The notes under the pieces are model-generated. The model had not been told where the DNA came from. It saw nothing but the letters and a program-made list of their open reading frames with translations, and searched no databases. This document shows, one piece after another, positions 1 to 52,984 of a stretch of 64,000 nucleotides of DNA. This DNA is from Candidatus Versatilivorator sp. GTDB taxonomy: Bacteria; Acidobacteriota; Terriglobia; Versatilivoradales; Versatilivoraceae. Each line of letters opens with the position of its first letter. The stretch's first letter is position 1. The stretch spans positions 928,001-992,000 of the forward strand of contig OZ242296.1 in the NCBI GenBank assembly GCA_965207735.1, read 5' to 3'. The position numbers were made by a program, and so were the translations under genes.

Positions 1-1724
1 GTGCGATTTACGGCCTCGGGGATTTCCTCGCCTTCTTCCGCTTCATGGTCCGCCTCTTCCTGGCCGCTCTCGTCGTCGGCATGGCCTCCCCCGCGCTCGG
101 CAAAACCCGGCCGGTAGCGCTGCGTCTCCAGCCTGCCGCCGAACTGGAACCTGGCGGCTTCGAATTCCAGTTCCTCAAGGACGTAGAGGGCAAAGCCGGT
201 CTGATCGATCGGGGGCGACAGCGCTTCCTCCCCGACTGCCGAGTATTCTCGATCCAGGCCCCAGAAGCCGAAGCGGCCGCTCAACGGTCCAATCTTTTTC
301 TGCTCGAAGACTCCCCGATAGACGAATTCCTGTTGGTCGAACGTCGTGCCGACAACTTGTTCCCCGTTCTCGAAGAACTCGATCTCCTTGTGATTCCAGT
401 CAGTCAAGCTCATTTTCAGAACAAATTCGTCTATTGCCGTCCCCAGGTCCCTCAATCCCCCGGTGAAACGGACGTTCCGGCGCCGTGAGTCGAGAAGGAT
501 ACGGTCGATCTCCTCCTCGCCGTGATCCTCGCCTTCCTCGCCGTGGTCCTCACCCTCTTCGTCGTGATCCTCGCCTTCCTCGTCGTCATCCTCGCCCTCT
601 TCGTCGTGATGCTCGCCTTCTTCGTCGTGGTCTTCGCCCTCTTCGTCGTGGTCCTCGTCCCCATGGCCCTCTTCGCCATGGTGTCCGTGAAACTCCTGAA
701 CGAAGGGTACGCCGTAGGCGCCGTCGTCGAATTTGGCTTCGACACTGAAGAAAATCTTGTCCCCGTACCAGCCCAGACCCGCTCCGCCATTTCTGAGTTG
801 AGAGCGTGAATTGTAGATCTGCCCCTGTTCCGCCGCCCTGTAGTCACCGGTTCGAACACCCCCACCGCGTCCCCAGATCATCCAGTTGCCGGTTCCAAAC
901 TCCAGACCGGCGCTGCCCCCACCCAAGGCGTTGGCGGTGCCGCCCGATCCGGACACGAATCCGCGAAACCCCTGGTGCGCATGGCGGTGAGCTTCGTGGT
1001 GACGACTGATGGCATTGACCGTGCCGCCCATGGCGTTTCCGCTGTAGAGCAGGGTCGCCGGTCCCTTGACGATCTCCAGCCGCTCCAGCTGCGCGGGATT
1101 GATCATCTCGCCATGGTCGCCGGACTGGGACGAAAGCGTACCTGTCCGGATGCCGTCTTCCATGATCAGCACGCGGTCCCCGTCAAAACCGCGCACGATC
1201 GGCCGGGCGGGGCCCGGTCCGAAGCTGCGCTTGGCAATCCCGGTGCCGACTCTGTGGTCCAGCATTTCCCCGAGAGAGATATCGGTCGATTGACCCAGTT
1301 CATGGGGCCCGATCGATTCCACGCTCTGGAAGGATTCAAATGTCGTCTCCCGCTTTTCCGATCCCGTGACCGTGACCTCATACTGGGGGGGAGCCAATAC
1401 CAGTCGAAAATCGGCCTCGACCGTTTGACCGGCCTCGATGGTCACCGTTGCGGAGGCTTCAGTAAAAAGGCTGTCGAGATGAGCTTCAACCGTATATCTG
1501 CCGGGAGCCACTTGTTGGAACCTGTAACTTCCATCGTCCCGGCTGAGAGTGATCCGGCCCAGTTCCACAATGGTCACGCTGACGCCGTGCAGCGGTTCCC
1601 CGCCGGCTTCCAAAGAGACGCGGCCCTTCAGGCTGCCGTCCGATTGGGCGACTGCGACTGGTTGGGCCGCCAGAGACAGCGCAGCCAACCAGAGGAGTGA
1701 AAGCAACCGGATTCCAATGTGCAT
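1..1724 (-). CDS. TonB-dependent receptor, ZnuD-like (putative Zn/metal uptake); 3' end runs off the window
   Basis: Translated by hand; absent from the ORF track because there is no stop in the window. ATG at 1724 follows a GGAGGG RBS. Signal peptide MHIGIRLLSLLWLAALSLAAQPVAVAQ, then a carboxypeptidase-regulatory-like N-domain (GSLKGRVSLEAGGEPLHGVSVTI), a plug motif SFGPGPARPIVRGFDGDRVLIMEDG..SGDHGE..RLEIVKGPATLLYSGNAMGGTVN, and a His/Asp/Glu loop. Confidence 0.9.
   Translation of the reverse strand, partial: MHIGIRLLSLLWLAALSLAAQPVAVAQSDGSLKGRVSLEAGGEPLHGVSVTIVELGRITLSRDDGSYRFQQVAPGRYTVEAHLDSLFTEASATVTIEAGQTVEADFRLVLAPPQYEVTVTGSEKRETTFESFQSVESIGPHELGQSTDISLGEMLDHRVGTGIAKRSFGPGPARPIVRGFDGDRVLIMEDGIRTGTLSSQSGDHGEMINPAQLERLEIVKGPATLLYSGNAMGGTVNAISRHHEAHRHAHQGFRGFVSGSGGTANALGGGSAGLEFGTGNWMIWGRGGGVRTGDYRAAEQGQIYNSRSQLRNGGAGLGWYGDKIFFSVEAKFDDGAYGVPFVQEFHGHHGEEGHGDEDHDEEGEDHDEEGEHHDEEGEDDDEEGEDHDEEGEDHGEEGEDHGEEEIDRILLDSRRRNVRFTGGLRDLGTAIDEFVLKMSLTDWNHKEIEFFENGEQVVGTTFDQQEFVYRGVFEQKKIGPLSGRFGFWGLDREYSAVGEEALSPPIDQTGFALYVLEELEFEAARFQFGGRLETQRYRPGFAERGGGHADDESGQEEADHEAEEGEEIPEAVNR
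511..690 (-). repeat. Imperfect 21-bp coding tandem repeat (EEGEDHD units) in the TonB receptor
   Basis: Minus strand encodes FHGHHGEEGHGDEDHDEEGEDHDEEGEHHDEEGEDDDEEGEDHDEEGEDHGEEGEDHGEEE. Confidence 0.9.
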
Positions 1725-1869
1725 GATGCCCTCCGAAGATAGCCGTGCCGAGTGCCAGCTTAATTGCCGAATCCGTTCTGCAGCCACTGGAATGTCAGGG
1801 GCGGGATATATGTTCGGATAAGCGGGATAAGAATCCGATCGAGCGGGACCGGTGACGACCACATAACAG

Positions 1870-1898
1870 TTGACGTGCTCCGTCTGTCCGGGTAATCT
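1870..1898 (+). promoter_or_regulatory. Putative sigma70 promoter for the permease-hflK operon
   Basis: TTGACG (1870-1875), 17-bp spacer, TAATCT (1893-1898). Confidence 0.55.
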
Positions 1899-1899
1899 G

Positions 1900-1919
1900 C
1901 TCAGCAACGCGTTGCGGAG
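1900..1919. promoter_or_regulatory. Palindromic operator candidate
   Basis: CTCAGCAACGCGTTGCGGAG is a 20-bp palindrome with one mismatched pair, immediately after the -10 box and between divergent metal genes. Confidence 0.5.
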
Positions 1920-2086
1920 TATTTACCGCACAGCCCAAGAAGATATGTGGACAATCCGCTTGGTTATTAGTGGGCACACTGGCCGCGCCCGGCTGCACGA
2001 CCCCCACTCCGGGTAATTCGCGGACGGGTTGAGGGGCCGTATCGGCCTCAGTTGGGAGATTCCAATTGGCTGTGGGATCCTTGAGC

Positions 2087-4489
2087 ATGTTGGCTGCATT
2101 CTTCGACTTCCTCTGGTCGTCCTTTCTCTTGTTAGCGCCCATGCTGCTGTTGGGGCTCTTTCTTTCGGGCCTCATTCACGTCTTTATTTCGCGTAAAGCT
2201 ATTCTCCGGTGGCTCCGTGACGACAGCCTGAAGTCGGTAACCACCAGTGCGGCCATCGGCGTGCCGGTCCCGCTGTGCAGTTGCTCGGTCGTGCCCGTGG
2301 TCGCCGAGATGCGGAAGAAAGGAGCGTCCCGCTCCTCCTGCATGTCGTTCCTGATCACTGCCCCGGAAACAGGCGCGGACTCGATCCTGGTCACCAACGC
2401 CTTCTTTGGATTGGTGGCGGCAATAGTCCGGCCCATCATCAGCTTCGTCACTGCGACCGTCGCCGGCATTTTTTGCATCGGTCTCATCAGAGACGATCGC
2501 GACGCGAAAGTGAGTGGTCACGGCCACGATCATGACCACGACCACGATCATGACCATGACCACGGTTCCCACGAGCCGCTCACGCCCGGCCAGGACGACT
2601 GCTATATCAGCTTTTCTCAATTGAAAGGCGCTATGGGGCGCTGGATGAGGGGAATCGCTACGGCGGCCGGGCGGGCGGTGGGCAGGTGGAAGTCCACATC
2701 CTGGGTCAAGCCGGAGTTCTATCGCGATCAGGCGCTGGCTGACGAGCCATCCGCCGACAGGTCGCAGGTCGATGCGCCCGCGGATGACCGGATGCCGAGC
2801 TTCAAGACGATCGTCAGGCATATCTTTCGCTACGGTTTCGTCGAAATCGCCGACGACATTCTCTTCGCGCTGCTCGTCGGGGTGGCCTTGGGGGGAGTGC
2901 TCTTTCTGGTGATTCCGAGCGATCTGATGTCGAACGAGTACGCCCGCTGGATGTCCTACCCCATCATGGTTCTGGTGGGAGTTCCGCTCTACATTTGCGC
3001 ATCGGCAAGCACCCCGATCGCCGCCGCGCTGGTCGCCAAGGGTTTCAGTCCGGGAGCGGCCCTGATTTTTCTCATGACGGGTCCGGCGACCAACACGGGC
3101 ACTATCGCGATCATCACAAGCCAGTTCGGCGCGCGTTTCGCGACCATCTACGTCTCGGCCGTGATCGTAGTGACCGTCATCGTGGGTATCTTGATTGATA
3201 TTCTGCTTCTGGCCACAGGCATGACCATCCCCGTGTACCTGGGGGCCTCGGACTCGCCGGCCATATTGTTGCTGCAATGGGGAGGCGCCTTGGGCCTCAT
3301 CGCCCTGATCATCTGGCGATTCCGGGCCGGCGCCTTGCGAAGCGGCTGGGAGGATCTGATGGTCAACATCCGGCCTCTGTCCAGGGGCTGGAGACAGGCG
3401 TGGGAACGTCTGACCCGAGGCCGGTCCCTCCGCGGCGCCATCACTCCGACCACTCCGGCGGGCAGGGGTCTCTCCGTTGTGGTCCTTGCCCTTTTCCTCG
3501 GCAGCGGCTTCACCTCCGTGCCTCCGGGAGAGGTCGGCTACGGTCGCCTGTTGGGCAAGGTTGTCTGGAGGGACCTGGAGCCGGGACTGCACTACCTTGT
3601 CCCCTGGCCCTTCGTTCAGGTCGATAAATGGCCGGTCCGGGAAGTGAAGTCGCTCATGGCCGGCGACGCCCACGAATACGTTTCCGGCGATCTGAACCTG
3701 ATTTCTCTCGTGGTCAATGTGCAATATCGGGTGAAGGACCCTTACCTCTACCATTACCGGATAAGCGACGCCCAGAGAATCGTCAAGGACGGCGTCAGGG
3801 ACCATGTGCGCTCCTTCGTATCCGCCCGAGATATGGATCAGCTCCTCAATGTTCATCGCGCAGCCTTGGAGGAGAGCGTCAACGAATTGTTCCAAAGCGA
3901 GCATCTGTCGCATCCGGAAGCGCAAGCCTTGGCGTTCGAGAGCGTCGAACTGGTGAAGGTGAACCTGTCGGCCATCAGTCCCGTACCCGAGGCCATGAGC
4001 GCGTTCCGGGAGGTATCGAGCGCGCAAGAGGACAAAGCTCGCATCATCACCAATGCGCAGCGGCTCCTGGTGTCTCTGATTCCCCAGGCGCACGGTAATG
4101 CCGACTACGAGGTGAAACAGGCCGCCGGCGAGGCGCACCGGAGAGTGAAGACGTCCGGGGCTGAGGCCGGTGCGATCCAGCGGGTGGCCGCGGCCATCCG
4201 AAGTGCTCCGAATGTGCTACGGAATATGCTGTGGCGGGAAAAACTGGAAACCGCACTGTCCGATAAACCCAAGATCATTGTGCCCAACAGACGTAGTCTG
4301 GATAAGGTTTCCTTGTGGAAGGGAAGATCGGCGGGGTCGGGCGCCAAAGCCCGTCATGTCGGCGCCGACAGGAACGCTGCAGACGGCGGGATGAGGGATG
4401 GCGCCAAGAGCGCCGGCCCGAAGAATTCGAAGAAGCCGGCCGACCCGCCCAAGGAATCAACAGCCAATCAGCCGGGAGAAAAAAAGTGA
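2087..4489 (+). CDS. DUF318 (ArsP/SO_0444-like) metal permease fused to a C-terminal HflK-like SPFH domain
   Basis: N-half has DUF318 motifs GVPVPLCSCSVVP, FLITAPETG, PLYICASASTPIAAAL and FLMTGPATN plus a HGHDHDHDHDHDHDH tract. C-half (from ~3480) has HflK motifs GFTSVPPGEVG..GKVV..LEPGLHY..PWPF, SGDLNLISLVVNVQYRVKDP, AFREVSSAQED and IPQAHGNA. ATG at 2087 (ORF track starts at 2066). Confidence 0.88.
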   Translation: MLAAFFDFLWSSFLLLAPMLLLGLFLSGLIHVFISRKAILRWLRDDSLKSVTTSAAIGVPVPLCSCSVVPVVAEMRKKGASRSSCMSFLITAPETGADSILVTNAFFGLVAAIVRPIISFVTATVAGIFCIGLIRDDRDAKVSGHGHDHDHDHDHDHDHGSHEPLTPGQDDCYISFSQLKGAMGRWMRGIATAAGRAVGRWKSTSWVKPEFYRDQALADEPSADRSQVDAPADDRMPSFKTIVRHIFRYGFVEIADDILFALLVGVALGGVLFLVIPSDLMSNEYARWMSYPIMVLVGVPLYICASASTPIAAALVAKGFSPGAALIFLMTGPATNTGTIAIITSQFGARFATIYVSAVIVVTVIVGILIDILLLATGMTIPVYLGASDSPAILLLQWGGALGLIALIIWRFRAGALRSGWEDLMVNIRPLSRGWRQAWERLTRGRSLRGAITPTTPAGRGLSVVVLALFLGSGFTSVPPGEVGYGRLLGKVVWRDLEPGLHYLVPWPFVQVDKWPVREVKSLMAGDAHEYVSGDLNLISLVVNVQYRVKDPYLYHYRISDAQRIVKDGVRDHVRSFVSARDMDQLLNVHRAALEESVNELFQSEHLSHPEAQALAFESVELVKVNLSAISPVPEAMSAFREVSSAQEDKARIITNAQRLLVSLIPQAHGNADYEVKQAAGEAHRRVKTSGAEAGAIQRVAAAIRSAPNVLRNMLWREKLETALSDKPKIIVPNRRSLDKVSLWKGRSAGSGAKARHVGADRNAADGGMRDGAKSAGPKNSKKPADPPKESTANQPGEKK

Positions 4490-5382
4490 TGACCTTGAAG
4501 GCAAAAAGAGTCGCCGCAACCATTGCCGTGATTGCTTTTGGCGTCGTTGCCTACGATGCCCACTACATCATCGACGAAACGCAGCAGGGGGTGCTGACCC
4601 ACTTCGGCAGGATTTCTCCTCCCGTCAAACAGCCCGGTCTCCACCTCAAGTGGCCCTGGCCCATCTCCAAGGTATACAAGGTTGATCGCCGCATTCATGT
4701 TCTCACCGACCTCACCCAGGAATTGATTACGGAAGACCAGAAGAGCGTTCTGATCAACGGGTATCTGCAATGGCGGGTCCAGGATCCCATCCTCTTCGTC
4801 GAGGCGATCCGAACCGCCCAGAGCGCCACCGAGCGGCTGAGGAATCTGTACACCTCGAGCAGCGGCATCGTCATCAGCAACGAGGCCCGGGACGCCTTTA
4901 TCAGTCTGGGCCTGGAACACGAAGATCTGACCAAGGCCGCCAGGGAGATTGTCGGCCTCATTGCGCCCATCGCAAGCGAGAACTACGGTATCGAGGTGAC
5001 CGGGGGCGGAATCGTCGAATACACCTTGCCGCTGGAGAACCGGCCAAGCGTGATTCAGCGAATGATCTCGGAGCGCGCCCGCATCGCCGCCCGCTATCGC
5101 AGTGAAGGGGAAGAGATGGCGATCCGCGTCGAGGCACGGGCCATCAACGAGCACGAAAAGCTCATGGCCGATGCCCACGCGGAAGCAACCGCCATTCTTG
5201 GCGATGCGGAAGCCGAAGCGATGCAGTTGCTCGGCAAGGCCTATCGACAGGATCCGGAGTTCTACAAGTTCATCCGCGCTCTCGACAGCTACGATCTGAT
5301 CATCGACAAGAACACTACCCTCATGCTGCCGGCGGATAACGAGTTGTTCAAGTATCTCGACAGCAGGCAAGTACCCAGATAG
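4489..5382 (+). CDS. hflC: HflC-like SPFH protein
   Basis: IIDETQQGVLTHFG..QPGLHLKWPWP, ITEDQKSVLINGYLQWRVQDP, QRMISERARIAARYRSEG and AYRQDPEFYKFIRALDSY. ATG overlaps the upstream stop (TGATG). Confidence 0.88.
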   Translation: MTLKAKRVAATIAVIAFGVVAYDAHYIIDETQQGVLTHFGRISPPVKQPGLHLKWPWPISKVYKVDRRIHVLTDLTQELITEDQKSVLINGYLQWRVQDPILFVEAIRTAQSATERLRNLYTSSSGIVISNEARDAFISLGLEHEDLTKAAREIVGLIAPIASENYGIEVTGGGIVEYTLPLENRPSVIQRMISERARIAARYRSEGEEMAIRVEARAINEHEKLMADAHAEATAILGDAEAEAMQLLGKAYRQDPEFYKFIRALDSYDLIIDKNTTLMLPADNELFKYLDSRQVPR

Positions 5383-5396
5383 TTCGGGTTCGGCTA

Positions 5397-6692
5397 ATGA
5401 ACGGACAACAATCAACTCCGACAAGCACGCGAGTCATATACGCCGTATTTGACTTTTACGGGTTGCACCGCACCCAGATTCTTGCGGGCCTCGCCGCGGT
5501 GGTCTTGATCTGCCTGCTGGCCACCGGCTTCTACATCGTCAAGAAGGAGGAGCAGGGCCTGCGCACCCGCTTCGGGCGAGTGGTCGATGCGGAAGTCGGT
5601 CCGGGAATCGGATACCGCATCCCCCTCATCGAACGGATGCACATCCGCAAGGTCAAGAGAATCGTCGGATACCGGATAGCCAGCAGGGACAGCGATACGA
5701 TCAACTTCACGGTCCTGTCCGGAGACACCAACCTTCTCGAAGTCGATGTGGCCATTCAGTACAGAATTGGCAACCTCAGGCAGTTCCTGTTTGCGAGCAC
5801 CGACCCCCAGACTTTGCTCACCATGCTCGTTCGCGAGGAACTGATCAACATTCTCGGGCAGCACTTTATCGACTTGATCTTCACTTCGAATCGCAATCTC
5901 ATTCAGCAGCATCTGATCGACGCCGTGATCGGGCGCCTCGAATCTCTGGATGTCGGCATGGAGCTCATCACGCTGAAAATCGTCAATGTGCGACCGATCC
6001 CGGAGACCCGTGATGCGTTCCGGGATGTCAACGATGCCATCGCCGAACGCGAGCAGGCCGTGAGCGGAGCAAATCGCAGGAGAGAACAGTTGATCGCTCG
6101 CAGCAAGGGGCAGGCTGAAGCGTTGATAATGAACGCCAAGGCGAGCGCCCGGGAACGGATTGTTCAGGCGCGAAGCAGCGCCGGCGTCTTCAGGGCGCTG
6201 CTGGCTGAATATCGGAAGCAGCCGCAGTCTGTGGCCATCACGCGTTACTGGCAACGCATGCGAGCGATCTTTACCGAGGCAAGCCTGGCGATGGTGAACC
6301 CGGGCCGGCCATCCACCATCGACATCAACATGATTGACGGCGCACCGGGATTCACCCCGGCCCAGATGTTGTTGCAAGCGCCGCCTACGGATTCTGCAGC
6401 TCTCGAGGGGCGGCTGCCCGGTTCGACGGTGGCGCCGGACATTCACACGCTGGAAAACATCGGGAAGGACAAACTCCTGCTGGAAGGACAGTTTCATAGA
6501 GAACGCACTGAGCGCGACCATCAAAAGGGAGCCAACCCCCGGTCGCTCATATTCGATACGCCGTCCATATTCTCCCATCGGCACATAAGGCCTCGCGGAG
6601 GGATTGTCAGGCAGCAGGAGAGCCAGAAGCCGATGGTGGAGTCGATGGCTGAGGAAGGCGCGGAGAAAGACAAGCCTGCGAAGGGGAAATAG
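5397..6692 (+). CDS. hflK: Second HflK-like SPFH protein with C-terminal extension
   Basis: GFYIVKKEEQGLRTRFGRVV..VGPGIGYRIP, LSGDTNLLEVDVAIQYRI, DAFRDVNDA and FRALLAEYRKQP. Confidence 0.85.
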   Translation: MNGQQSTPTSTRVIYAVFDFYGLHRTQILAGLAAVVLICLLATGFYIVKKEEQGLRTRFGRVVDAEVGPGIGYRIPLIERMHIRKVKRIVGYRIASRDSDTINFTVLSGDTNLLEVDVAIQYRIGNLRQFLFASTDPQTLLTMLVREELINILGQHFIDLIFTSNRNLIQQHLIDAVIGRLESLDVGMELITLKIVNVRPIPETRDAFRDVNDAIAEREQAVSGANRRREQLIARSKGQAEALIMNAKASARERIVQARSSAGVFRALLAEYRKQPQSVAITRYWQRMRAIFTEASLAMVNPGRPSTIDINMIDGAPGFTPAQMLLQAPPTDSAALEGRLPGSTVAPDIHTLENIGKDKLLLEGQFHRERTERDHQKGANPRSLIFDTPSIFSHRHIRPRGGIVRQQESQKPMVESMAEEGAEKDKPAKGK

Positions 6693-6693
6693 C

Positions 6694-7884
6694 ATGACCG
6701 AATGTCTGCTCCGGAAATGTCGATCAGCGCCGTTGCTGGTATTACCGTTGCTGTTGGCACCCTGGCCTTCGATGGCGGCCGACGGCGTCTACGCGGACAA
6801 AATCGTCTTTGGACAGAGCGCCTGTCTATCGGGGCCCAACAGGGATCTGGGGCGCCATTACCGGGCAGGTATCCTGGTGGCCTTCGGGGAACGGAACGCT
6901 CTCGGGGGGATCGACGGCAGGTCTCTGGAACTGATCACGCGCGACGACGGCTACGAGCCGGGCCAGGCAGCGGCGAACGCGCAGAGATTCGTCGCCGAGG
7001 ACGATGTGTTGGCCGTCATCGGCGGGGTGGGAACGCCTACCTCGAGGCGGATCGCTCCAGTGCTGCGAGCGGCCAAGATTCCGTTTGTGGGACACATTAC
7101 GGGCGCCGGCTTTCTGCGCGATGCCGGGCAGTATCCGAATGTCGTCAATCTGAGGGCGAGTTATCAGGACGAAATCCGCATGCTGGTAAACCACACCGTT
7201 GGCCACCACGGCAAGAGACGGTTCGGCATCATCTACCAGGACGATGCCTTCGGTCGATCGGGGCTGAAGGGCTACAAGGTGGCGCTCGACGAGCACGGTC
7301 TTCCCCTGCTGGCGAAAGCGGCCTTTTCGCGCAATACCCATGCCGTCCATGCCAGCCTCTTCTCCCTGGCCAAGGCCGATCTGGATGTGATTCTGGTCGT
7401 CGGAACCTACACCACCAATGCAGATATCATCAACTTGGCAAAGAGCCTGGGACACGACTACATCATGGCCAACCTGTCTTTCGTCCTGTCCTATGAATTG
7501 AAGAAGAGAATCGAGGTGCCGGGCAGCCGAATCGTGGTAACCGAGGTCGTGCCTGACGTGAACGACCCGAATAGTCGAGTCGTTCAGAGTTTTCGGCGCG
7601 CCCTTCGAGCGTCAGGCGGACGAACGGTAAAATCCGAAATGCCCGCGATCAACGAGGTATCTCTGGAAGGCTATATACTTGGCCGCTTTGTCATCGCCGT
7701 GCTGGAACGCATGGACGGGGAGTGGACGCGAGAGCGCTTTCTGGATCGGGCTTTGCAATCCGGCCCCGTGGACATTGATGACTGGAAGGTTGAATTCAAG
7801 CCGGGGACGAACACCGGATCGAGCTACGTCAGGTTGACCGTGTTCAATGGCCACGATTCCCACGAGAGGAGAGAGGGTCCTTGA
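6694..7884 (+). CDS. Periplasmic binding protein type 1 (branched-chain amino-acid/ligand-binding family)
   Basis: Signal peptide, then IVFGQSACLSGP, GGIDGRSLELITRDDGYEP, GGVGTPTS, NLRASYQDE and YQDDAFG. ATG at 6694, just after the hflK stop. Confidence 0.85.
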   Translation: MTECLLRKCRSAPLLVLPLLLAPWPSMAADGVYADKIVFGQSACLSGPNRDLGRHYRAGILVAFGERNALGGIDGRSLELITRDDGYEPGQAAANAQRFVAEDDVLAVIGGVGTPTSRRIAPVLRAAKIPFVGHITGAGFLRDAGQYPNVVNLRASYQDEIRMLVNHTVGHHGKRRFGIIYQDDAFGRSGLKGYKVALDEHGLPLLAKAAFSRNTHAVHASLFSLAKADLDVILVVGTYTTNADIINLAKSLGHDYIMANLSFVLSYELKKRIEVPGSRIVVTEVVPDVNDPNSRVVQSFRRALRASGGRTVKSEMPAINEVSLEGYILGRFVIAVLERMDGEWTRERFLDRALQSGPVDIDDWKVEFKPGTNTGSSYVRLTVFNGHDSHERREGP

Positions 7885-8372
7885 AAAAGGTAGACGAGTT
7901 CACCACCGAAGAGGTCGGCGAGGAATGGCTGCGCGAGCTCTACAAGGTTGTCGCTATGCGCCGTGGCACCATGTTCCGGTTGATTACCGAATCGACGCGC
8001 ATGTTGCTTTACGGAAACGCCGGCGGCGCGGCCTTGGTGGTCGGATTCATGAGAGAGCCTTCAGGAAGCCCCGAGAATACGGTGTACCACTGGTTTTCCC
8101 TGCTGACCCTGGTCGTGTTCGGGTTCGGAATCCTGGCCTCGGCCCTGACCATGGTGCTGGTGACTCTGGTCTCGGTGAAGGAGGCCCACGGGGCGGAAAC
8201 CGGATTGAAGGAGTTTGTCGACGGCGATTTGGATCGGACACGGGTGCTGTTTAAAGTTGCGGGCCAGACCTTTCGCCTCGCCGATTTCGCCACGGTGTCC
8301 GGCACCGTCAGCGCCATGAGCTTCATGCTCGGCGGATTGAGCAGCATCGTCCTGCTGACCCTGTTCTTCTAG
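7881..8372 (+). CDS. Hypothetical membrane protein
   Basis: TTG start overlaps the upstream TGA; about three hydrophobic segments; no family recognised. Confidence 0.65.
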   Translation: MKKVDEFTTEEVGEEWLRELYKVVAMRRGTMFRLITESTRMLLYGNAGGAALVVGFMREPSGSPENTVYHWFSLLTLVVFGFGILASALTMVLVTLVSVKEAHGAETGLKEFVDGDLDRTRVLFKVAGQTFRLADFATVSGTVSAMSFMLGGLSSIVLLTLFF

Positions 8373-8397
8373 CCCTCCCTAGAACCGGACCATCACC

Positions 8398-8997
8398 ATG
8401 CTTCAGCTTGCCGGTTCGCTCCTCGCCCCGGTTGCAGGCGCCTTGCTGTACGGGTGGTTGCACAACCGGCCCTATGGCGTGCGCCTCGTTGACGGCTTCA
8501 TGTATGTAGCGGTGCCGGCACTCGTCCTGTGGCAAGTCGTTCCGCACGCCTGGGCCAGTCACGGCCTACTGGCCATTGGGGTCATCGTCCTGGGCATAGT
8601 CACACCCGCTCTCATCGAGCGCCTCTCTCACAAGCTTGCTCCGCACACCGACAACCTGGCTCTCCTGGCCGGGTTGTCGGGGCTGTCGCTGCACGCGTTT
8701 CTGGAGGGAGCGGCGCTCGTTTCAAAAGCGCTTCATATCGGACTCGCCGTGATTCTGCACCGGATTCCGGTCGGCCTGACGGTCTGGTGGTTGTTACGTC
8801 CCCGTCACGGCTTCAGGGGAGCTTCACTGGGAATTGCGGCGATCCTCGTGGCCACGGTCGCCGGTTACGCTGCCGGCGCCCGTTTCTTCGGGGACGGTCA
8901 TAGCGGTGCAGGGCTCTATCAGGCGTTTGTCGGCGGATCGCTTCTGCACGTGGTGTTTCACCAGAGCCGCCGCGACCATAGTCACGAGCACGACTAG
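8398..8997 (+). CDS. ZIP-like divalent metal transporter domain protein
   Basis: Multi-TM; LHAFLEG and ILHRIPVG resemble ZIP TM4/TM5 motifs; C-terminal His-rich tail (HVVFHQSRRDHSHEHD). Confidence 0.65.
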   Translation: MLQLAGSLLAPVAGALLYGWLHNRPYGVRLVDGFMYVAVPALVLWQVVPHAWASHGLLAIGVIVLGIVTPALIERLSHKLAPHTDNLALLAGLSGLSLHAFLEGAALVSKALHIGLAVILHRIPVGLTVWWLLRPRHGFRGASLGIAAILVATVAGYAAGARFFGDGHSGAGLYQAFVGGSLLHVVFHQSRRDHSHEHD

Positions 8998-9002
8998 CGA
9001 GG

Positions 9003-9347
9003 CTATAAAGAGGCCAGAGCGCTCCAGCGCGAGTTGCGGATCAGCATGACCTGATCGAAGCCGCTGACGCGAAAAACCTCGTGGATGTTGTCCTTCATGG
9101 AGCACAAGATGAACTTGCCCTGTTTCGACTGAAACTGTTTGGCAGCTACCAGAATCACACGCATTCCCGCACTGCTGACAAATTTGAGCCGGCTGAAGTC
9201 GATAATCAGGTTCTGTTCACCGTTCCTGATGTGATCCATTACCAGTGATTCAAACGAGTCCGCATTCGGGCCGTACAAGCGGTTGACAGGGATCAGAACC
9301 AACACCCCGGATTCTCGCTCCTCGATTACTTCAATATCAGTGATCAT
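9003..9347 (-). CDS. STAS-domain anti-sigma-factor antagonist
   Basis: LIIDFSRLKFVSSAGMRVIL..IHEVFRVSGF; likely ATG at 9347. Confidence 0.85.
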   Translation of the reverse strand: MITDIEVIEERESGVLVLIPVNRLYGPNADSFESLVMDHIRNGEQNLIIDFSRLKFVSSAGMRVILVAAKQFQSKQGKFILCSMKDNIHEVFRVSGFDQVMLIRNSRWSALASL

Positions 9348-9465
9348 TGTGGCACCTGAATGTCGGCCTGCCCCCAGTCGTCTCGGACGGGCTGATGGTT
9401 CCTGTACGCCATGAATTTGCAGAAGGGTAAAGTATCCACGATCAATTTGTCCAGGGCGATTTGCA

Positions 9466-12400
9466 TCACGCCTCATCGTCGCTTTCGAGCCAGCGATACA
9501 GCGATGGAAGCACGAAAAGCGTCAGCAGAGTCGAGGTTACCAGTCCACCGATGACGACCGTCGCCAAGGGACTCTGCACCTCGGCACCCGCACTGGTCGA
9601 CAAGGCCATGGGAACGAATCCGAGACTGGCGACCAGTGCCGTCATCAGGACCGGCCTCATGCGGCGCTCGGCGCCCTGACGCACCGCCTCGTCCACCGTC
9701 ATACCCTGCTTTCTGAGGTCGAGAAAGTAGGAAACCATCACGACGCCGTTCAGCACCGCAACGCCGAAGAGCGCGATGAAGCCGACGCCGGCTGAGATGC
9801 TGAGAGGCAGTCCGCGCAGGAACAGCGCCAGGATGCCTCCGGTGGCCGCCAGCGGGATGTTGAAGTAGATGAGCATTGCCGGCTTGGCCGCCTTGAAGGC
9901 CGTATAGAGCAATAGAAAGATCAGGAAGAGTGCAATCGGCACGACCAGGGCCAAGCGTTTGGTGGCCCGCTCCATGTTCTCGAACTGTCCACCGTATTCC
10001 ACGGAATAGCCGGGTGGCAGATCGACTCCGCCGGCAACCGCCGCCCGCACATCTGTGGCGAAACTGCCGAGATCGCGGCCGCGCACGTTGGCTTCGACTG
10101 TAATTCTCCGCTGGATCTGCTCCCGGCTAATCTGAGCCGGGCCCTCCTCGGTCCAGATCTCGGCGAGTTGCGACAGCGGGATCATGGCGCCGCCAGGATC
10201 AGACACCCGGATCGATCGGATCTGCTCGATATTGTTGCGGGCCTCGGGCACGAACCTCGCCCGCAAGGGGAAGCGAGCCTGTCCCTCGAGCACCTCGCCG
10301 AGCGTCGTTCCTCCCATCGTCTCGACCACGGCCAGTACGTCGGCGACATTGATGCCATAACGAGCCACCGCTGCACGATCGATCCGTACACGCAGAAAAG
10401 GCAGTCCGGACGTCTGTTCCGCCTTGACGTCGGCGGCGCCGGGAACGCCGGCCACCACCCGCCGCACCTCGTCCCCGATGCGTCGTAACTCGTCGAGGTC
10501 GGGACCGTATACGGTGACCGCCAAGTCGGAACGGACACCAGCGATCATCTCCTGCATGCGCAATTCGATGGGTTGCGAGTAGCTGAAGATGTTGCCGGGC
10601 ACCCGATGCTCGAGCGCACGGTTGATCTCCTCGATCAGGCCTTCCTTGGTATCGGCCGTTTCCCAGTTACTGTCGTCGGTCAGGATCGCATAGATGTCGC
10701 TGGTCTCAACCCCCATCGGGTCGGTGGGGATCTCGGCTTGACCGGTCCGAGAAACCACCGTCACAACCTCGGGGAATTCCAGCAGCGTCTTCTCGATGAG
10801 TGTCGTGCTCTTGGTTGACTCCGAGAGCGCTACGCTTGGGAGACGCCAAGCCTGAACCGCAATGGCGCCCTCGTTGAGCTTGGGCAGGAACTCCGTGCCC
10901 ATGAAGGGGACCAACAGGAGCGAAGCGGCAAAGACGAGCGCCGCTCCGGCTCCGGCCAGGCGCGGATACGACAGAACCCTGTCGAGCAGCGGTCGGTACA
11001 GCCTCAGCAGCCAGGCCACCAGGCGGGGGGTCTTGTGTGGGATTCGCTTCCGAAACACCATCAGGGAGAGCACCGGCATCAGCGTCAGAGCCAACACCAG
11101 TGAAGCCACCAGAGCGAAGACCACGGTCAGGGCCATTGGCCGGAACATCTTTCCTTCGATTCCCTGCAGGACCATGATGGGCAGGTAGACGATGATGATG
11201 ATCATCACCGCAAAGAACACCGGGCGCGCCACTTCGCGACCTGCCCAGCCCACCACCTCACCACGTATCTGTCCATTTCGCGCCTGGCTCAGGCGCCGAA
11301 CGATGTTCTCGACCATGACAACCGATCCGTCGACGATCAGCCCGAAGTCGATTGCGCCCAGGCTCATCAAGTTGCCGGAAAGCCCTGCCTGTACCATTCC
11401 GGTAAAGGCGAACAGCATCGATAACGGAATCACCGAGGCGACGATCAATCCTCCGCGCAGGTTGCCCAGAAACAGCAGGAGCACGGCGATCACCAGCAGG
11501 CCCCCTTCCACCAGGTTCTGCTGCACGGTGGCTATGGTCCGCCGGACCAGATCGGTTCGGTCGTAGAAGGTTTCGATTTCAACGCCTGGAGGCAATGTCG
11601 GTTTGATGCGCGCCAACTCCTCGTCCACCTTTCGAGCAACGACGCGCGGGTTCTCGCCCATCAGCATCATGACGACGCCGGTCACCACCTCGCCTCTACC
11701 GTCTCGAGTCACGGCGCCCTGCCGGACCATGGGCGCGAAGGCGGCTTTGCCGATATTGCGAATGAAGATGGGAGTACCGTCCTCGACGGCCGTGACCACG
11801 ATATTGTCGATGTCCTCAAGGGAGTCGATCAGGCCCTCGCCGCGAATGACGTACTGCTCCTGGGAGCGTTCGATGTAAGCGCCTCCCGCATTCGCGTTGT
11901 TCTCTCGAAGCGCGTCGAAGACCATTTCGAGCGAAACGTTGTGGGCAACCAGGCGATTGGGATCGAGCTGCACCTCATAGGTTTTGAGCTCGCCACCGTA
12001 GGAATTCACCTCGACCACGCCCGGTACCGACTGCAGCTTGAACCCGATCTCCCAGTCGAGGATGCTGCGCAACTCCATTGGGGTATACCCTTCGCCACGA
12101 ACCTCGAACTGGTAGATCTCACCCAACCCGGTGCTGATCGGACCCATTGAGGGTGTGCCGTAGCCCTCCGGAATCAACTCGCGGGCCTCGGGCAGCCGCT
12201 CCATTACGAGCCGGCGTGCGAAGTAGAGGTCGATCGACTCTTCGAAATAGATGTAGACCGACGAGAGTCCGAACCGCGAAACCGATCGGATCTTGGTGAT
12301 GCCGGGAAGGCCGCTCATTGCGGTTTCGACTGGAAAGGTGACAAACTGCTCGACCTCCACCGGCCCGAGCCCGGGCGTCTGGGTCAAAACCGCCACCTGG

Positions 12401-12531
12401 TTTGGAGTCACGTCGGGCACCGCATCGATCGGCAACTGGAACATCGAGTAGACGCCGAAGCCGGCAGCCAACAGGGTGAACGCCAGGATGAGAAACCGAT
12501 TGCGGAGGGAGAAATCGATGAGGCGATGCAT
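9466..12531 (-). CDS. czcA: CusA/CzcA heavy-metal efflux RND transporter
   Basis: LPIDAVPDVT, GNLMSLGAIDFGLIVDG, GFIALFGVAVLNG and RPVLMTALVASLGFVPMA; 1021 aa. Confidence 0.95.
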   Translation of the reverse strand: MHRLIDFSLRNRFLILAFTLLAAGFGVYSMFQLPIDAVPDVTPNQVAVLTQTPGLGPVEVEQFVTFPVETAMSGLPGITKIRSVSRFGLSSVYIYFEESIDLYFARRLVMERLPEARELIPEGYGTPSMGPISTGLGEIYQFEVRGEGYTPMELRSILDWEIGFKLQSVPGVVEVNSYGGELKTYEVQLDPNRLVAHNVSLEMVFDALRENNANAGGAYIERSQEQYVIRGEGLIDSLEDIDNIVVTAVEDGTPIFIRNIGKAAFAPMVRQGAVTRDGRGEVVTGVVMMLMGENPRVVARKVDEELARIKPTLPPGVEIETFYDRTDLVRRTIATVQQNLVEGGLLVIAVLLLFLGNLRGGLIVASVIPLSMLFAFTGMVQAGLSGNLMSLGAIDFGLIVDGSVVMVENIVRRLSQARNGQIRGEVVGWAGREVARPVFFAVMIIIIVYLPIMVLQGIEGKMFRPMALTVVFALVASLVLALTLMPVLSLMVFRKRIPHKTPRLVAWLLRLYRPLLDRVLSYPRLAGAGAALVFAASLLLVPFMGTEFLPKLNEGAIAVQAWRLPSVALSESTKSTTLIEKTLLEFPEVVTVVSRTGQAEIPTDPMGVETSDIYAILTDDSNWETADTKEGLIEEINRALEHRVPGNIFSYSQPIELRMQEMIAGVRSDLAVTVYGPDLDELRRIGDEVRRVVAGVPGAADVKAEQTSGLPFLRVRIDRAAVARYGINVADVLAVVETMGGTTLGEVLEGQARFPLRARFVPEARNNIEQIRSIRVSDPGGAMIPLSQLAEIWTEEGPAQISREQIQRRITVEANVRGRDLGSFATDVRAAVAGGVDLPPGYSVEYGGQFENMERATKRLALVVPIALFLIFLLLYTAFKAAKPAMLIYFNIPLAATGGILALFLRGLPLSISAGVGFIALFGVAVLNGVVMVSYFLDLRKQGMTVDEAVRQGAERRMRPVLMTALVASLGFVPMALSTSAGAEVQSPLATVVIGGLVTSTLLTLFVLPSLYRWLESDDEA

Positions 12532-12532
12532 G

Positions 12533-12667
12533 TTAGTGCGAGTGGCCGATCCGCACGTGATCGATCGGCAATTGGAACATTGAATGCACTCCGAACTCGG
12601 AAGCCACTACCGTGAACGCCAGGATGCGATACCGATTGTGGCGGGAGGAATCGACGAGGGAATTCAT
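12533..12667 (-). other. 44-codon chimeric mini-ORF from a diverged ~136-bp tandem duplication of the czcB/czcA junction
   Basis: MNSLVDSSRHNRYRILAFTVVASEFGVHSMFQLPID-HVRIGHSH* aligns codon by codon to the CzcA N-terminus (MHRLIDFSLRNRFLILAFTLLAAGFGVYSMFQLPID) plus the CzcB C-terminus (HERIGHSH*). Confidence 0.85.
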
Positions 12668-12668
12668 G

Positions 12669-14024
12669 TTAGTGCGAATGACCGATTCGCTCGTGAAGCA
12701 ACGCGGTTTTCAAATAGAAGCTGCCGGTCGACACGATCGTTTCGCCCGGCTTCAGGCCGCTGACCACCTCAACCTGACCGCCGGCCGTCGAACCGAGCGT
12801 CACGTCGCGGCGCTCAAAGGCGGTCGGTCCTGTCCGCGCGAAGACAACTGACTGCCCGTCAATCTGTTGAACCGCATCCACGGGAGCCACCAGCGTGGAA
12901 ACCTTCTCATTTGTAGGGATGGAAACTCTGGTGAACATGCCGAGCTTCAGCGCCTTGTCGGGATTCTTGACGACACAGCGCACGTGAGCGGCGCGCGTGC
13001 TCATTTCGATGGTGTCCGAGATGTAGGTGATGCGGCCGGTGAACACCCGGTCCGGATAGGCATCGACCTGAATCGTGACTTCGGCGTCCGTTGGGAGGCG
13101 GCCCAGGTCGGGCTCGTAGACATCGGCGAGAACCCAAACCGTTGACATGTTGGTAATCGTCAGCAGCTCGCGGCCAGGATCGACCAGGTCGCCCACTGCC
13201 ACACCGAACTCCGTCACGGTCCCCGCGAAGGGTGCGCGAAGCACATTGAGCGACATTTCGCGGTGTCGTTCCGCGGCCGCCCGCATCTCGTCGGCACTAC
13301 CGCTCGGGGCGACTTCCGAAAGGTCTTCGTCCGTCAGTCCGAAGCGATGTATCCGCTCCTCGATTCTGCTCACCTCCGCCTGGTTGCTGACCAGGCCGGC
13401 CCGGGCCTGCTCGAACTCCGACCGGCGCAGATCGAGGGTCTGCTGAGAGATCGCCTCAAGGCCGATCAATTGCTCTGCCCGTTGCAAGCTCCGTTGCAAG
13501 ACCTCTAGGTCGGCCTCGGCCTGGCGTCGAGCCGCTACCGCCGCCCGGTATTCCCCGATGTGGTCTCCAAGCGCGATGTTGTCGTAATGCACGAGCACTT
13601 GTCCCGCTCGCACGCGGTCGCCAAGGCTGACGTCGACTTGCTTGACGACCCCCTCCGCCAACGGCCGCAGGCGCACCACTCGTGAGATGACGGGCGTGAC
13701 CAGACCGGTCACGTTCATCGGTACGGGATGGGCACGGCGCTCCGCGGCTGCAACCTGCATGCCGGCGTTCTGCTGGGCCTCCAGGGGAATCTCCAGCGAA
13801 CCATCGGCCTCGTCTCCGGCGTGCTCTTCACCGTCATGGGTCTCGCCGGCGTGTTCCTCCTCAGCGTGGTCTTCCCCATGGTGAGCCCCATTGTTTCCCG
13901 TCTCCAGGCAGGCTGAACCTGCCGCGGCTCCCAAGCAGATCGCCAGCCAGACGAGCACTGCACCCAGCCCGCCTTGCCGGCGCAGTCTGTGACGCAGTCG
14001 GTGACGCGGTCCATGCATTTGCAA
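12669..14024 (-). CDS. czcB: CzcB-like RND membrane fusion protein
   Basis: His/Glu-rich N-segment; LRAPFAGTV, VWVLADVYE, FTGRITYI and LKLGMF. Confidence 0.92.
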   Translation of the reverse strand: MQMHGPRHRLRHRLRRQGGLGAVLVWLAICLGAAAGSACLETGNNGAHHGEDHAEEEHAGETHDGEEHAGDEADGSLEIPLEAQQNAGMQVAAAERRAHPVPMNVTGLVTPVISRVVRLRPLAEGVVKQVDVSLGDRVRAGQVLVHYDNIALGDHIGEYRAAVAARRQAEADLEVLQRSLQRAEQLIGLEAISQQTLDLRRSEFEQARAGLVSNQAEVSRIEERIHRFGLTDEDLSEVAPSGSADEMRAAAERHREMSLNVLRAPFAGTVTEFGVAVGDLVDPGRELLTITNMSTVWVLADVYEPDLGRLPTDAEVTIQVDAYPDRVFTGRITYISDTIEMSTRAAHVRCVVKNPDKALKLGMFTRVSIPTNEKVSTLVAPVDAVQQIDGQSVVFARTGPTAFERRDVTLGSTAGGQVEVVSGLKPGETIVSTGSFYLKTALLHERIGHSH

Positions 14025-14043
14025 TCGCTCCCTCGGAGCCGGG

Positions 14044-15351
14044 TCAGGGTTTTCCCGTCGGCCGGATGCCGACGGCCGCCGCCATCTCTATCAGGCTGAT
14101 GCGCAGGTCGTAGAGAGCCTGGTTGCGCACCTGCTGAGTTACGATGAATTCGCGCTGCACATCCAGGAAATCGATCAGCGCGGTCTCGCCAAGGTGGTAG
14201 GAGGCCTGGATCAGGTCATGCAATTCCCTTGAGCTGCGAAGATACTCCTGGTCAATATAGCGGACCCGCTTCGCACTGCTGTCGACGGCGTTGGCCGCCA
14301 TCTGCAACTCGGTGTCGACCGCCAACTTTTCCGCCCTCTCCAGTGCCTGGGCTCGGCGTCGTTCGGCAAAGGCCCGCTGTACTCCAGCGGGATTCAGACT
14401 GCCGAATAACGGAATCGGGATGCTGACTTCGAAATCCATGGCGTGCTCGCCGAAATCCCGGCGGTAGCCCCAGGCGAAAGTGACATTTGGAGCACGCATC
14501 GCGTGTTGCAGCTCCATCTCGGCTTCAGCGCGTTCGCGGGCATGGCGAGCGGCCTGCAGATCCGGCCGGATTGAGGCAGCGTCCTTCCGCAACGAATTCA
14601 ATTCAGCCGTGACGCCCTCACCCGTGGCGATCAGTCCACCGTCCGGACTTCGGAGTGGAGACGGCTCCAGCGGATCTATCGCTTCGAGCTGTTGCCGCAG
14701 GTCGGCTGCTCCGAGCAGATTCAGCAACACCACGCGTGCGTCGCTCATCGCCAGTTCCGTTGTCAGGACCTCATCGAAGAAATGGAGGCGCTCCACCTGC
14801 AGCCGGCGGAGCTCCGTGCCTGCCACTTCACCCACCTTGAACCTGGCCTCGGTCAAGGCGATGACACGCTCAATATCCTTGAGCGCCGCTTCCGCCGTGG
14901 TCTGATTGGCTTGGGCGAGTGCAAGCTGGAAGTATGCCTTGCTTACTTCGAGCTGCAGACGTCGAAGTTCATCGGCAACTTCCGAGCGCGCCACCCCGAT
15001 ACCGGCGTCAGCTGCTTTCATGCGGTGCCCACGACGGCCGGCGGTCTCGATCTCCTGCTCCATTCGGACGATCAAGGCCTGGCCGTTCAGGAATGAGGGA
15101 ACGTTGGGCCCAAAGATCGAATACTCCTCGCCTTCCACTGCAATTTCGGGGTTCGGCCGGCTGGCCGCCTCGCGCGCATCCGCCTCCGCGATCTCAACCA
15201 GGTTTCGGGCGGCGCGGAAATTGGCGTTGGCCACCTCGGCGATGCGCAGGGCATCGGCAAGCGTCAACCTTTCCGGGATCTCCGTATCCTGCCCCGATGC
15301 CGGAATATAAAGCAGGAACAGGGCACAGAAGAACAGCGTGGCGAACCTCAT
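14044..15351 (-). CDS. czcC: CzcC/TolC-family outer membrane efflux protein
   Basis: Signal peptide from ATG 15351; LTLADALRIA, RPDLQAAR and SYHLGETALIDFLDVQR. Confidence 0.9.
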   Translation of the reverse strand: MRFATLFFCALFLLYIPASGQDTEIPERLTLADALRIAEVANANFRAARNLVEIAEADAREAASRPNPEIAVEGEEYSIFGPNVPSFLNGQALIVRMEQEIETAGRRGHRMKAADAGIGVARSEVADELRRLQLEVSKAYFQLALAQANQTTAEAALKDIERVIALTEARFKVGEVAGTELRRLQVERLHFFDEVLTTELAMSDARVVLLNLLGAADLRQQLEAIDPLEPSPLRSPDGGLIATGEGVTAELNSLRKDAASIRPDLQAARHARERAEAEMELQHAMRAPNVTFAWGYRRDFGEHAMDFEVSIPIPLFGSLNPAGVQRAFAERRRAQALERAEKLAVDTELQMAANAVDSSAKRVRYIDQEYLRSSRELHDLIQASYHLGETALIDFLDVQREFIVTQQVRNQALYDLRISLIEMAAAVGIRPTGKP

Positions 15352-15644
15352 CGGACTAAAAAAGGGGATGGGGTCGTGGATAAGCAATTCTATGTCAAGT
15401 CGCAGCCGGTGCTCCGGAGCCCGCCTCGGAGTCTTGCACAAGGGGATCTCCGGCGGAATACGGCAGTTCGTGTCGTCGAAGGCTGAACAGCTGCGATCTC
15501 CTTGAAATCACTTTATTTGGAAGCAATTCAGAGTACGAAGTATATCATAGGCTCGTAGGAAGTCGGTCGGAGACAAACCGGGGTCCGGCTTTCAACCGCT
15601 GCCACGCTGTTCCCCCAAGGCAAATTCTCACATCTGAGGCACAC

Positions 15645-50016: not shown

Positions 50017-50017
50017 G

Positions 50018-51583: not shown

Positions 51584-51595
51584 GGGTTGCTCCCA

Positions 51596-52510: not shown

Positions 52511-52984
52511 CGGGGCCTCCTAGGGCTTGAAGAAATTTCGCATGTCGCTGCTTGCCCACGACGCCATCGGCGGCGCCCCCAATCATACACAAATCGAAAC
52601 CCGTTTCAACCGGAGCCGCCGGGGAGCATTGCGTCCCGCTCCAAAGCCAAGAATCCAGGTTGCCCCCTGCGATCCTGGCCATTGCACCAAAGCCTCGACA
52701 ACACCACCCGTAGTCTTCATGGGATCTGCGAACCCTTTACGAATTCTAAGCGCGCATCTGGCGGAAAAGCAGGCCCGTATTTGGCCTGCGCCGCCTTTTC
52801 TCGACGACCGGCACAACCGCATACCTCAGAATGCGAGTGTCGAGGAACGCGATCGCCGGATGTGGTAAAACTTTCCGGCGTCGAGGAAACGGATCTGTCG
52901 TACAATAGCCGCTGATCCTCAAGGATAGGCAGGCTCTGCCGTTTCCGCCGCGAGGGGCTGCTTCTTCCGGTCCAGCACGTTGCC

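Follow-up and report, generated by a model that had tools for sequence, protein, structure and literature searches.

An ArsP-type permease fused to an HflK-like subunit in a conserved five-gene cassette points to probable SPFH rings dedicated to metal transporters

In Escherichia coli, hflK and hflC form a two-gene unit behind hflX. Their products build a 24-subunit periplasmic cage over a patch of membrane (PDB 7VHP, 7WI3, 9CZ2 and 9PAW; PMC13220708, PMC12048511); FtsH binds through HflK only, with R141, E142 and R185 named as the contact residues of HflK, and HflK and HflC also alter membrane curvature and lipid scrambling (PMC13220708). Here we describe a cassette of related genes at positions 2087-8997 of a 64,000-nucleotide stretch of Candidatus Versatilivorator sp. 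(Acidobacteriota; GCA_965207735.1, contig OZ242296.1, positions 928,001 to 992,000, forward strand; the whole stretch is referred to as the window), in which a metal-type permease and an HflK-like subunit share one reading frame and in which the main client of the SPFH proteins is probably this tethered transporter, not FtsH.

The closest gene cluster in the literature is PA2439-PA2434 of Pseudomonas aeruginosa, where three SPFH genes accompany the P1B-type ATPase HmtA; PA2437-2439 are induced 9-14-fold by zinc depletion, the promoter binds Zur, and the papers on the cluster assign the SPFH genes no function (PMC4542158, PMC11761036, PMC8531726). A preliminary description of the window had pointed to clusters of hflK/hflC with P-type ATPases in other bacteria, and this cluster shows that they are real. 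The permease belongs with proteins for which a CSC motif is the SO_0444/SaoE signature (10.1101/2022.07.06.499078), and an operon with an ArsP_1 permease has a Zur-bound upstream region, read as positive regulation (PMC6336718). In eukaryotes, the human stomatin dome encloses the transporters AQP1 and UT-B (PMC12407830).

The cassette consists of co-oriented genes on the + strand, and all six open reading frames, with their positions and gaps, agree with the preliminary description. Gene A (2087-4489; 800 amino acids, or 807 from an alternative TTG start at 2066) encodes the permease–HflK fusion (K1), gene B (4489-5382; 297 amino acids) an HflC-like SPFH subunit, and gene C (5397-6692; 431 amino acids) a second HflK-like SPFH subunit with a C-terminal extension (K2). 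Gene D (6694-7884; 396 amino acids) encodes a periplasmic binding protein of the LivJ type (class I), gene E (7881-8372; 163 amino acids) a small membrane protein of no known family, and gene F (8398-8997; 199 amino acids) a probable shortened, divergent ZIP that occupies a variable sixth slot. The junctions, in order, are TGATG at 4487-4491, a gap of 14 base pairs (bp), a gap of 1 bp, a 4-bp overlap and a gap of 25 bp. Assembly error is excluded for the fusion in A because contigs from two DNA runs cross the junction in frame: that of run X3, possibly the source sample, spans 2526-4887 with zero differences, and that of run X5, from a different study, spans 1-4884 with 78 substitutions and one compensating indel pair at 4357/4364, far past the fusion junction. 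From RNA runs X1 and X2 nothing beyond short, scattered contigs was obtained, and no sigma-70-like promoter was found.

The permease part of A comprises residues 1 to about 410 and is followed by an Arg-rich linker, one anchor helix, an HflK-like SPFH domain and a coiled coil. Pfam places ArsP_1/DUF318 (PF03773) at residues 3-371 (E 2e-44) and Band_7 (PF01145) at 477-658; against NCBIfam, A scores 318 bits for NF033936, the SO_0444 family Cu/Zn transporter (cut-off 300), and its HflK part scores best as hflK, below threshold (126.7 bits; cut-off 159.4). C64, C66 and C304 are invariant across 145 permease sequences. The permease contains an internal repeat (HHalign probability 99%) in which the C64-S-C66 motif (2276-2284) pairs with C304 (codon 2996-2998) on the second pseudo-symmetric loop, and, as judged from this invariance and the repeat, the three cysteines are likely the metal-binding site. 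The central loop carries a His-Asp repeat with nine His (2519-2572); at least five His are present in this loop in 120 of 120 close relatives and in 48 of 111 distant ones. The charge pattern, read by the positive-inside rule, would put both the His loop and the linker (413-460) in the cytoplasm and, as for HflK, the SPFH domain in the periplasm.

A permease-only model built from 145 sequences reached a predicted local distance difference test score (pLDDT) of 87 and a predicted template modelling score (pTM) of 0.83. In a structural search with this model, 13 elevator-type transporters lead (Z 8.9-12.3, root-mean-square deviation 4.5-6.3 Å over 242-283 residues) and the next match drops to Z 5.1. 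The top folds are Pho90 and ArsB (both Z 12.3; 4.5-4.8 Å over 272-274 residues of the predicted model, at 8-15% identity), followed by INDY (10.9), YdaH (10.2), TRAP (10.1) and CNT (9.5). The permease is thus predicted to have a two-hairpin elevator fold of the ArsB/DASS/TRAP kind, with C64/C66 and C304 on symmetric loops. No solved structure of any ArsP/DUF318 permease was found among the PDB matches, and the predicted model would be the first fold assignment for these permeases. The model of full-length A is weak (pLDDT 61, pTM 0.42); it shows the anchor, the SPFH domain and a helix at 634-706, and its best structural matches are HflK/C.

Band_7 scores above the Pfam cut-off in A, B and C alike, and all three have the layout of the HflK/HflC branch, with an anchor helix, an SPFH domain and a coiled coil. 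The best PDB match of B is E. coli HflC (E 4e-31) and that of C is E. coli HflK (E 2e-27); B passes TIGR01932 (hflC; 157.5 bits, cut-off 134.4), and C stays under TIGR01933 (hflK; 144.2 bits, cut-off 159.4). The unit has three genes instead of two; B exceeds the hflC cut-off, and A and C both stay below that for hflK. Past its coiled coil, K2 carries a tail rich in His, Asp and Glu (6444-6578) with H350, D358, H367, E372, H375, D387 and H394, six of which are invariant in 18 of 18 sequences, H375 being present in 17 of 18; by this conservation the tail is a candidate metal-binding element at the top of a cage. No such tail was seen on K2 of the other, non-cassette trios inspected.

D matches PF13458 (E 9e-46), and its PDB matches are LIV-type binding proteins. 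The preliminary description had placed a binding protein in a metal-transport set: D is a binding protein, but of the LivJ type (amino-acid/sensor class), not the metal-binding ZnuA type. It has an HxxH motif, with H216 in 17 of 17 and H219 in 15 of 17 cassette sequences, and its two paralogues in the genome, which sit before sensor kinases, lack both His. E, translationally coupled to D, has about three membrane helices and an invariant His in a short outer loop. It has no Pfam or PDB match and 363 relatives, the best 120 of which are 66-96% identical, and it always stands directly after D. PF04290 (DctQ) was unmatched in 15 E sequences at E<=5, and a profile of E compared with 11 DctQ sequences gave a probability of 0.2%. 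A likeness of E to Pycsar effectors, scored at 0.80, is a lead only.

The combination of DUF318 and Band_7, which the preliminary description had proposed to seek in other genomes, is conserved together with its neighbourhood. Among the best 120 relatives of A, which are long proteins of 61-89% identity, 117 are listed with both Pfam domains; the few that are named come from Gemmatimonadota, Opitutae, Latescibacteria and Gammaproteobacteria. Both domains are carried by 64 of the 66 long distant representatives scanned from the best 150 of a profile search, and the fusion is therefore old. In a tree of permeases the fused forms make a clade apart from the 12 unfused distant permeases sampled (support 100). 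Where a metagenome locus is long enough to judge, A is followed by B and C (19 of 19 loci), then by D (18 of 18) and by E (15 of 15). Relatives of the cassette occur in several phyla at 60-75% identity. The 15 complete loci reduce to 13 once near-identical pairs are merged. A ZIP gene directly follows E in six of these and Znu components are adjacent in five; of the remaining two, one has a weak ZnuA-like match only and the other has no flank, so that ZIP or Znu is present in 12 of 13, one of them weak. Genes A to E are thus a conserved cassette (fusion, HflC, second HflK, LIV-type protein and membrane protein) whose sixth slot varies between ZIP and ZnuABC, while F, the TonB receptor and czcCBA of the window stand outside it.

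The cassette is one form of a wider class of K–C–K trios. In an Aquibium plasmid record, a CDF membrane domain is fused to the first subunit of such a trio, which is followed by a peptidyl-prolyl isomerase and a His-rich P1B-ATPase. The CDF–HflK fusion at L095:6317-9962, on a conjugative plasmid record, has the CDF part without its usual C-terminal domain; the combination of CDF and Band_7 (PF01545 and PF01145) is found in 120 of 120 listed relatives, hence in at least 120 proteins, from Alphaproteobacteria and Chloroflexi. A search of 301 genomes of the window's phylum with the hflK family led to 10 places with paired second matches, all of them trios: in eight the first subunit is fused to a P1B-ATPase, in two to an ArsP permease. 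Four further places that were inspected held one pair, two single genes and one cut locus. A fusion-profile search, with matches in 7 of 401 genomes, added four more ArsP-fused trios; in two distant ones, L154 and L156, znu genes come next, and D or E was not among the listed neighbour genes of six distant ArsP trios. A search of 401 Pseudomonadota genomes with an alignment of trio HflC was dominated by ordinary hflC and was set aside.

The eight P1B-ATPase–HflK fusions (L134, L135, L136, L137, L138, L140, L141 and L142; for example L134:8496-11525, - strand) join a P1B-type ATPase with a CPC motif in frame to HflK, are about 1005-1025 amino acids long and head a K–C–K trio; four of the eight were scanned and confirmed with Pfam. 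A secreted-looking protein of 154-162 amino acids follows the trio in five of six loci inspected and lies upstream in the sixth. Directly upstream of the fusion, L135:11595-12347 and L142:11204-12061 (-) encode a membrane protein with an HTLxGxDH-like motif and no Pfam match at E<=0.01, which we take to resemble a Ni/Co transporter, a likeness that Pfam did not confirm at that threshold. In three further trios, from Verrucomicrobiales, Burkholderia and Rhizobium records, the first subunit (L014:7961-9850, L150:6239-8131 and L151:6269-8284) has a long multi-helix membrane N-terminus of 280-340 amino acids with no known Pfam family, and a P1B-ATPase lies downstream. This N-terminus may be a fourth kind of cargo or a pump adaptor; BLAST showed no similarity between the N-terminal part of K1 from the Verrucomicrobiales record and the CDF part of its Aquibium counterpart.

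In all 14 of the 14 trios to which SPFH similarity alone led, a metal transporter is either fused or the next thing downstream. Among seven annotated two-gene hflKC pairs from plasmid records, none has an annotated heavy-metal transporter within 7 kb; the loci compared were picked by hand, so this is no statistical test, and an eighth plasmid record is unannotated. Orphan hflK–hflC pairs without ftsH occur on plasmids (L096, L098-L101 and L103), several of them in a conserved block with a Crp/Fnr regulator, a fatty acid desaturase and small hypothetical genes. The trios form one class in which at least three interchangeable pumps (ArsP permease, CDF and P1B-ATPase) are fused to the first subunit. 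No description of such fusions, or of caged bacterial metal transporters, was found in a literature collection that lacks most subscription journals, and transporter–cage fusions are apparently undescribed in print.

In a FastTree analysis of 216 SPFH domains, two-gene HflK (94) and HflC (82) separate from all trio subunits. A 56-row tree puts all 20 ArsP-, CDF- and P1B-fused domains on one branch (82/83) and ordinary HflK on a weak one (74/90); K1 of the window groups with the other permease-fused domains (100/98), and K2 and B are long branches on an unresolved backbone. At the positions of the E. coli residues R141, E142 and R185, A has K/S in place of R141/E142 and varies at 185, and C has none of the three; these residues are uninformative because they are not conserved even in the ordinary HflK of other taxa.

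These results somewhat favour a reading in which a dedicated K1–C–K2 ring holds several fused permeases and aids the uptake of a scarce zinc-like metal. That A, B and C form one ring is very likely. They would assemble their own HflK/C-type periplasmic ring in an alternating order, K1–C–K2–C, with K1 and K2 sharing the HflK positions, and the covalent tether would put several copies of the permease at the ring, in one membrane patch; there is a reasonable case that the permease sits inside it. The substrate can be taken with fair assurance to be Zn or another soft transition metal, and the evidence leans slightly towards import. On the periplasmic side, the His-rich tail of K2 and the HxxH-bearing D may collect metal, and the His loop of the permease may receive it in the cytoplasm; these metal-collecting roles are suggested by residue conservation.

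A number of points weigh against this reading. The ring is proposed from sequence comparison; the branch of fused K1 domains is not starred in the 56-row tree, support for the trio HflC group is weak (63/89), and forcing K2 together with ordinary HflK is not rejected by the approximately unbiased test (p-AU 0.20). A Z of 12 for a helical membrane protein is suggestive and no proof of an elevator fold, and Foldseek with the permease model returned nothing at E<=0.001. Across 26 upstream regions there is no conserved palindrome or shared motif, and a Zur-like box occurs in one of them (locus L033) and not in the window. In L033, about 150-200 bases upstream of the fusion, two adjacent Zur-like boxes were seen (the best with 4 mismatches to a Zur consensus; 0 of 60 shuffles). 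According to one of the studies on the hmtA cluster, zinc did not repress hmtA mRNA. The remaining points concern the direction of transport, the place of these genes in their own genome and the occurrence of the permease without a cage, and each lends something to a different explanation.

The same tethered ring could serve export, the permease pumping excess Zn or Cu to the periplasm and the ring holding it or handing it on to Czc-type RND pumps. The closest folds of the permease model include ArsB, an exporter, and pumps of the two kinds found fused in other trios, CDF and P1B with a CPC motif, as a rule work as exporters. Export is kept open because A passes the cut-off of SO_0444, a family named as Cu/Zn exporters, because the Shewanella DUF318 gene Shew_3410 is needed under zinc stress (10.1101/072470), and because of the Czc neighbours, with Czc-type RND genes in 7 of the 13 loci, one of them distant, as well as in the window. 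Zinc uptake is nevertheless favoured because the co-oriented neighbours are importers and because zinc shortage induces the P. aeruginosa trio, to which Zur binds. Immediately after the cassette and in its orientation, ZIP or Znu importer genes are much commoner than RND genes, and the distant trios L154 and L156 likewise lead into znu genes. Export appears unlikely.

Less likely still is that the ring continues to dock FtsH, in which case the fusion would place the transporter beside the protease, to be shielded or removed according to metal status, or would supply zinc to FtsH. The genome lends this some weight. It is a single contig, 100% complete, with seven Band_7 genes, among which A, B and C are the only HflK/HflC-like ones, and its FtsH has a periplasmic domain. 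A separate canonical hflKC pair, the presence of which the preliminary description had left to be checked, was sought in the genome and is absent, so that A to C are not extra copies here. K2, moreover, is not excluded from the ordinary HflK clade and would be a free HflK-like subunit of the kind through which FtsH binds, and one of the hmtA-cluster papers ties PA2438/PA2439 to FtsH by annotation. Linkage points the other way: neither ftsH nor hflX was found near 39 trio loci or in the window in a search that included positive controls, as the preliminary description had also noted for the 64 kb, and the single ftsH and hflX of the genome lie about 2.2 Mb and 3.8 Mb from the cassette. Within the genus, hflC occurs in 3 of 14 genomes, the same three that carry the cassette, and 11 of 14 live without any hflC; this makes the cassette an accessory element, and FtsH of this lineage otherwise does without HflK/C. 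Five of five other trio-bearing genomes tested hold a separate ordinary hflC elsewhere, and the presence of the cassette in different phyla at 60-75% identity fits a self-contained module that moves between them. The GC content of the cassette is 58-64%, close to the 62% of the genome. What the preliminary description had read as a paralogous K–C–K set linked with metal transporters and not with a protease is thus supported as regards the link, given three fused families on one branch and the missing ftsH and hflX, but not as regards paralogy, since this is the only hflK/hflC set in the genome.

The permease also occurs alone. Among 51 permease domains, six non-redundant close relatives are permease-only and nest among the fused forms at five or more places. 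The eight permease-only loci (L013, L040, L041, L043, L044-L046 and L051) stop just before the HflK anchor helix and lack B to E, and two of them retain a ZIP gene behind the permease. From this nesting, the permease has lost its cage repeatedly, at least five times, and has itself kept an open frame (429-477 amino acids), which would make the cage an enhancer and not a requirement. That the SPFH subunits are a mere lipid-organising or folding scaffold, with chance fusion partners behind the metal link and D and E as a separate sensor module, would agree with this loss, with the sensor kinases behind the paralogues of D and with the effects of HflK/C on membranes, but it is very improbable in view of three fused families that are all metal transporters, an invariant His-rich K2 tail and D His substitutions that are cassette-specific, and D and E genes kept in every complete cassette and missing from all eight permease-only loci. 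With three unrelated pumps swapped onto one subunit lineage and cage-less permeases up to 95% identical to fused ones (L013 against L018), these natural pairs allow one to ask whether the cage alters the rate, selectivity, direction or lifetime of a transporter.

The genes around the cassette are less constant than the cassette itself. F, described beforehand as ZIP-like, does have ZIP-like motifs and is probably a shortened, divergent ZIP transporter by sequence: its Atlas ZIP cluster score is 0.92 (25 of 30 matches are ZIP), and it aligns weakly with ZIPs (E 0.003) across 152 columns that include both His motifs (HAFLEG and HRIP). It has no Pfam match, including to PF02535, and it was seen only in two loci of the same genus, so that it is no fixed part of the cassette. 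The divergent His-rich TonB-dependent receptor (1-1724, - strand), which runs off the window, has ZnuD as its best NCBIfam match, as the label ZnuD-like implied, but scores far under the ZnuD cut-off; a ZIP gene follows it in the genome (C1:926313-927152). The proposal that this receptor channels metal to the cassette found no support, since the two adjoin only within the window's genus. The convergent czcC–czcB–czcA exporter genes are present as described (9003-15441, - strand, together with the STAS gene; TIGR00914, 1213 bits; Pfam), but the STAS gene intervenes and czcCBA is no fixed cassette part. The STAS gene (9003-9476, -) encodes an anti-anti-sigma protein and overlaps the end of czcA, and it has a paralogue close to one of the D paralogues (C1:4129183). 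Adjoining czcC is a Na+/phosphate cotransporter gene (15645-16793, +), and PHO4-family phosphate transporters also stand beside the cassette in L022, L024 and L033, and weakly in L013, L018 and L029. Farther away, 17722-23007 (-) encodes a sulfatase of 1762 amino acids that is probably exposed at the surface and has a Pro-rich linker as well as fibronectin III repeats. The open reading frame at 49481-52912 (+), 1144 amino acids long, matches nothing in Pfam at E<=1e-8 and lies upstream of genes for a sulfatase, an MMPL protein and a LolA-like protein.

Set against known systems, the permease half of A shares with the SO_0444/ArsP/DUF318 (UPF0718) permeases the NF033936 match, the CSC motif, two repeats and a central His-rich loop, and differs from them in its C-terminal HflK domain and its place in a five-gene cassette. 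With TRAP transporters (DctP–DctQ–DctM) the cassette shares an elevator-like large subunit (Z 9-10 to IseQM and SiaQM), a binding protein and a small membrane protein. The likeness is an analogy only, because D is LivJ-type and not DctP and E has no similarity to DctQ; distant trios and permease-only relatives, moreover, have the permease but neither D nor E. A bolder picture, doubtful for now, would take the trios as a general class of SPFH cages with interchangeable pumps and the present cassette as a periplasmic metal-collecting chamber, in which the K2-tail top and D gather zinc and, with E, deliver it TRAP-style to a floor ring of elevator transporters.

The P. aeruginosa hmtA cluster resembles the cassette in having three HflK/C-family genes beside a metal transporter, and differs in that its pump is a separate gene of another family and that D and E are missing. 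Kinship with PA2437-2439 rests on the annotation in the papers and on look-alike loci, namely the Burkholderia, Rhizobium and Verrucomicrobiales trios with a downstream P1B-ATPase. The cassette suggests what the so far unexplained SPFH genes in the hmtA operon, which Zur regulates, may do. Like the E. coli HflK/HflC cage with FtsH, the cassette has HflK-like and HflC-like subunits that match over their full length, with an anchor helix, an SPFH domain and a coiled coil, encoded in adjacent K–C order. Unlike it, the cassette has three subunits, the first fused to a transporter and K2 bearing a His tail; it is without linkage to hflX or ftsH, and it is accessory and patchy (3 of 14 genomes in the genus). 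The stomatin dome provides the nearest parallel for an SPFH assembly with transporter rather than protease clients, yet stomatin is a eukaryotic homo-oligomer with non-covalent clients, whereas the cassette encodes a bacterial three-subunit set. SPFH cages bind their clients loosely, and such clients are difficult to identify; in the present case the probable client is genetically fused to a cage subunit.

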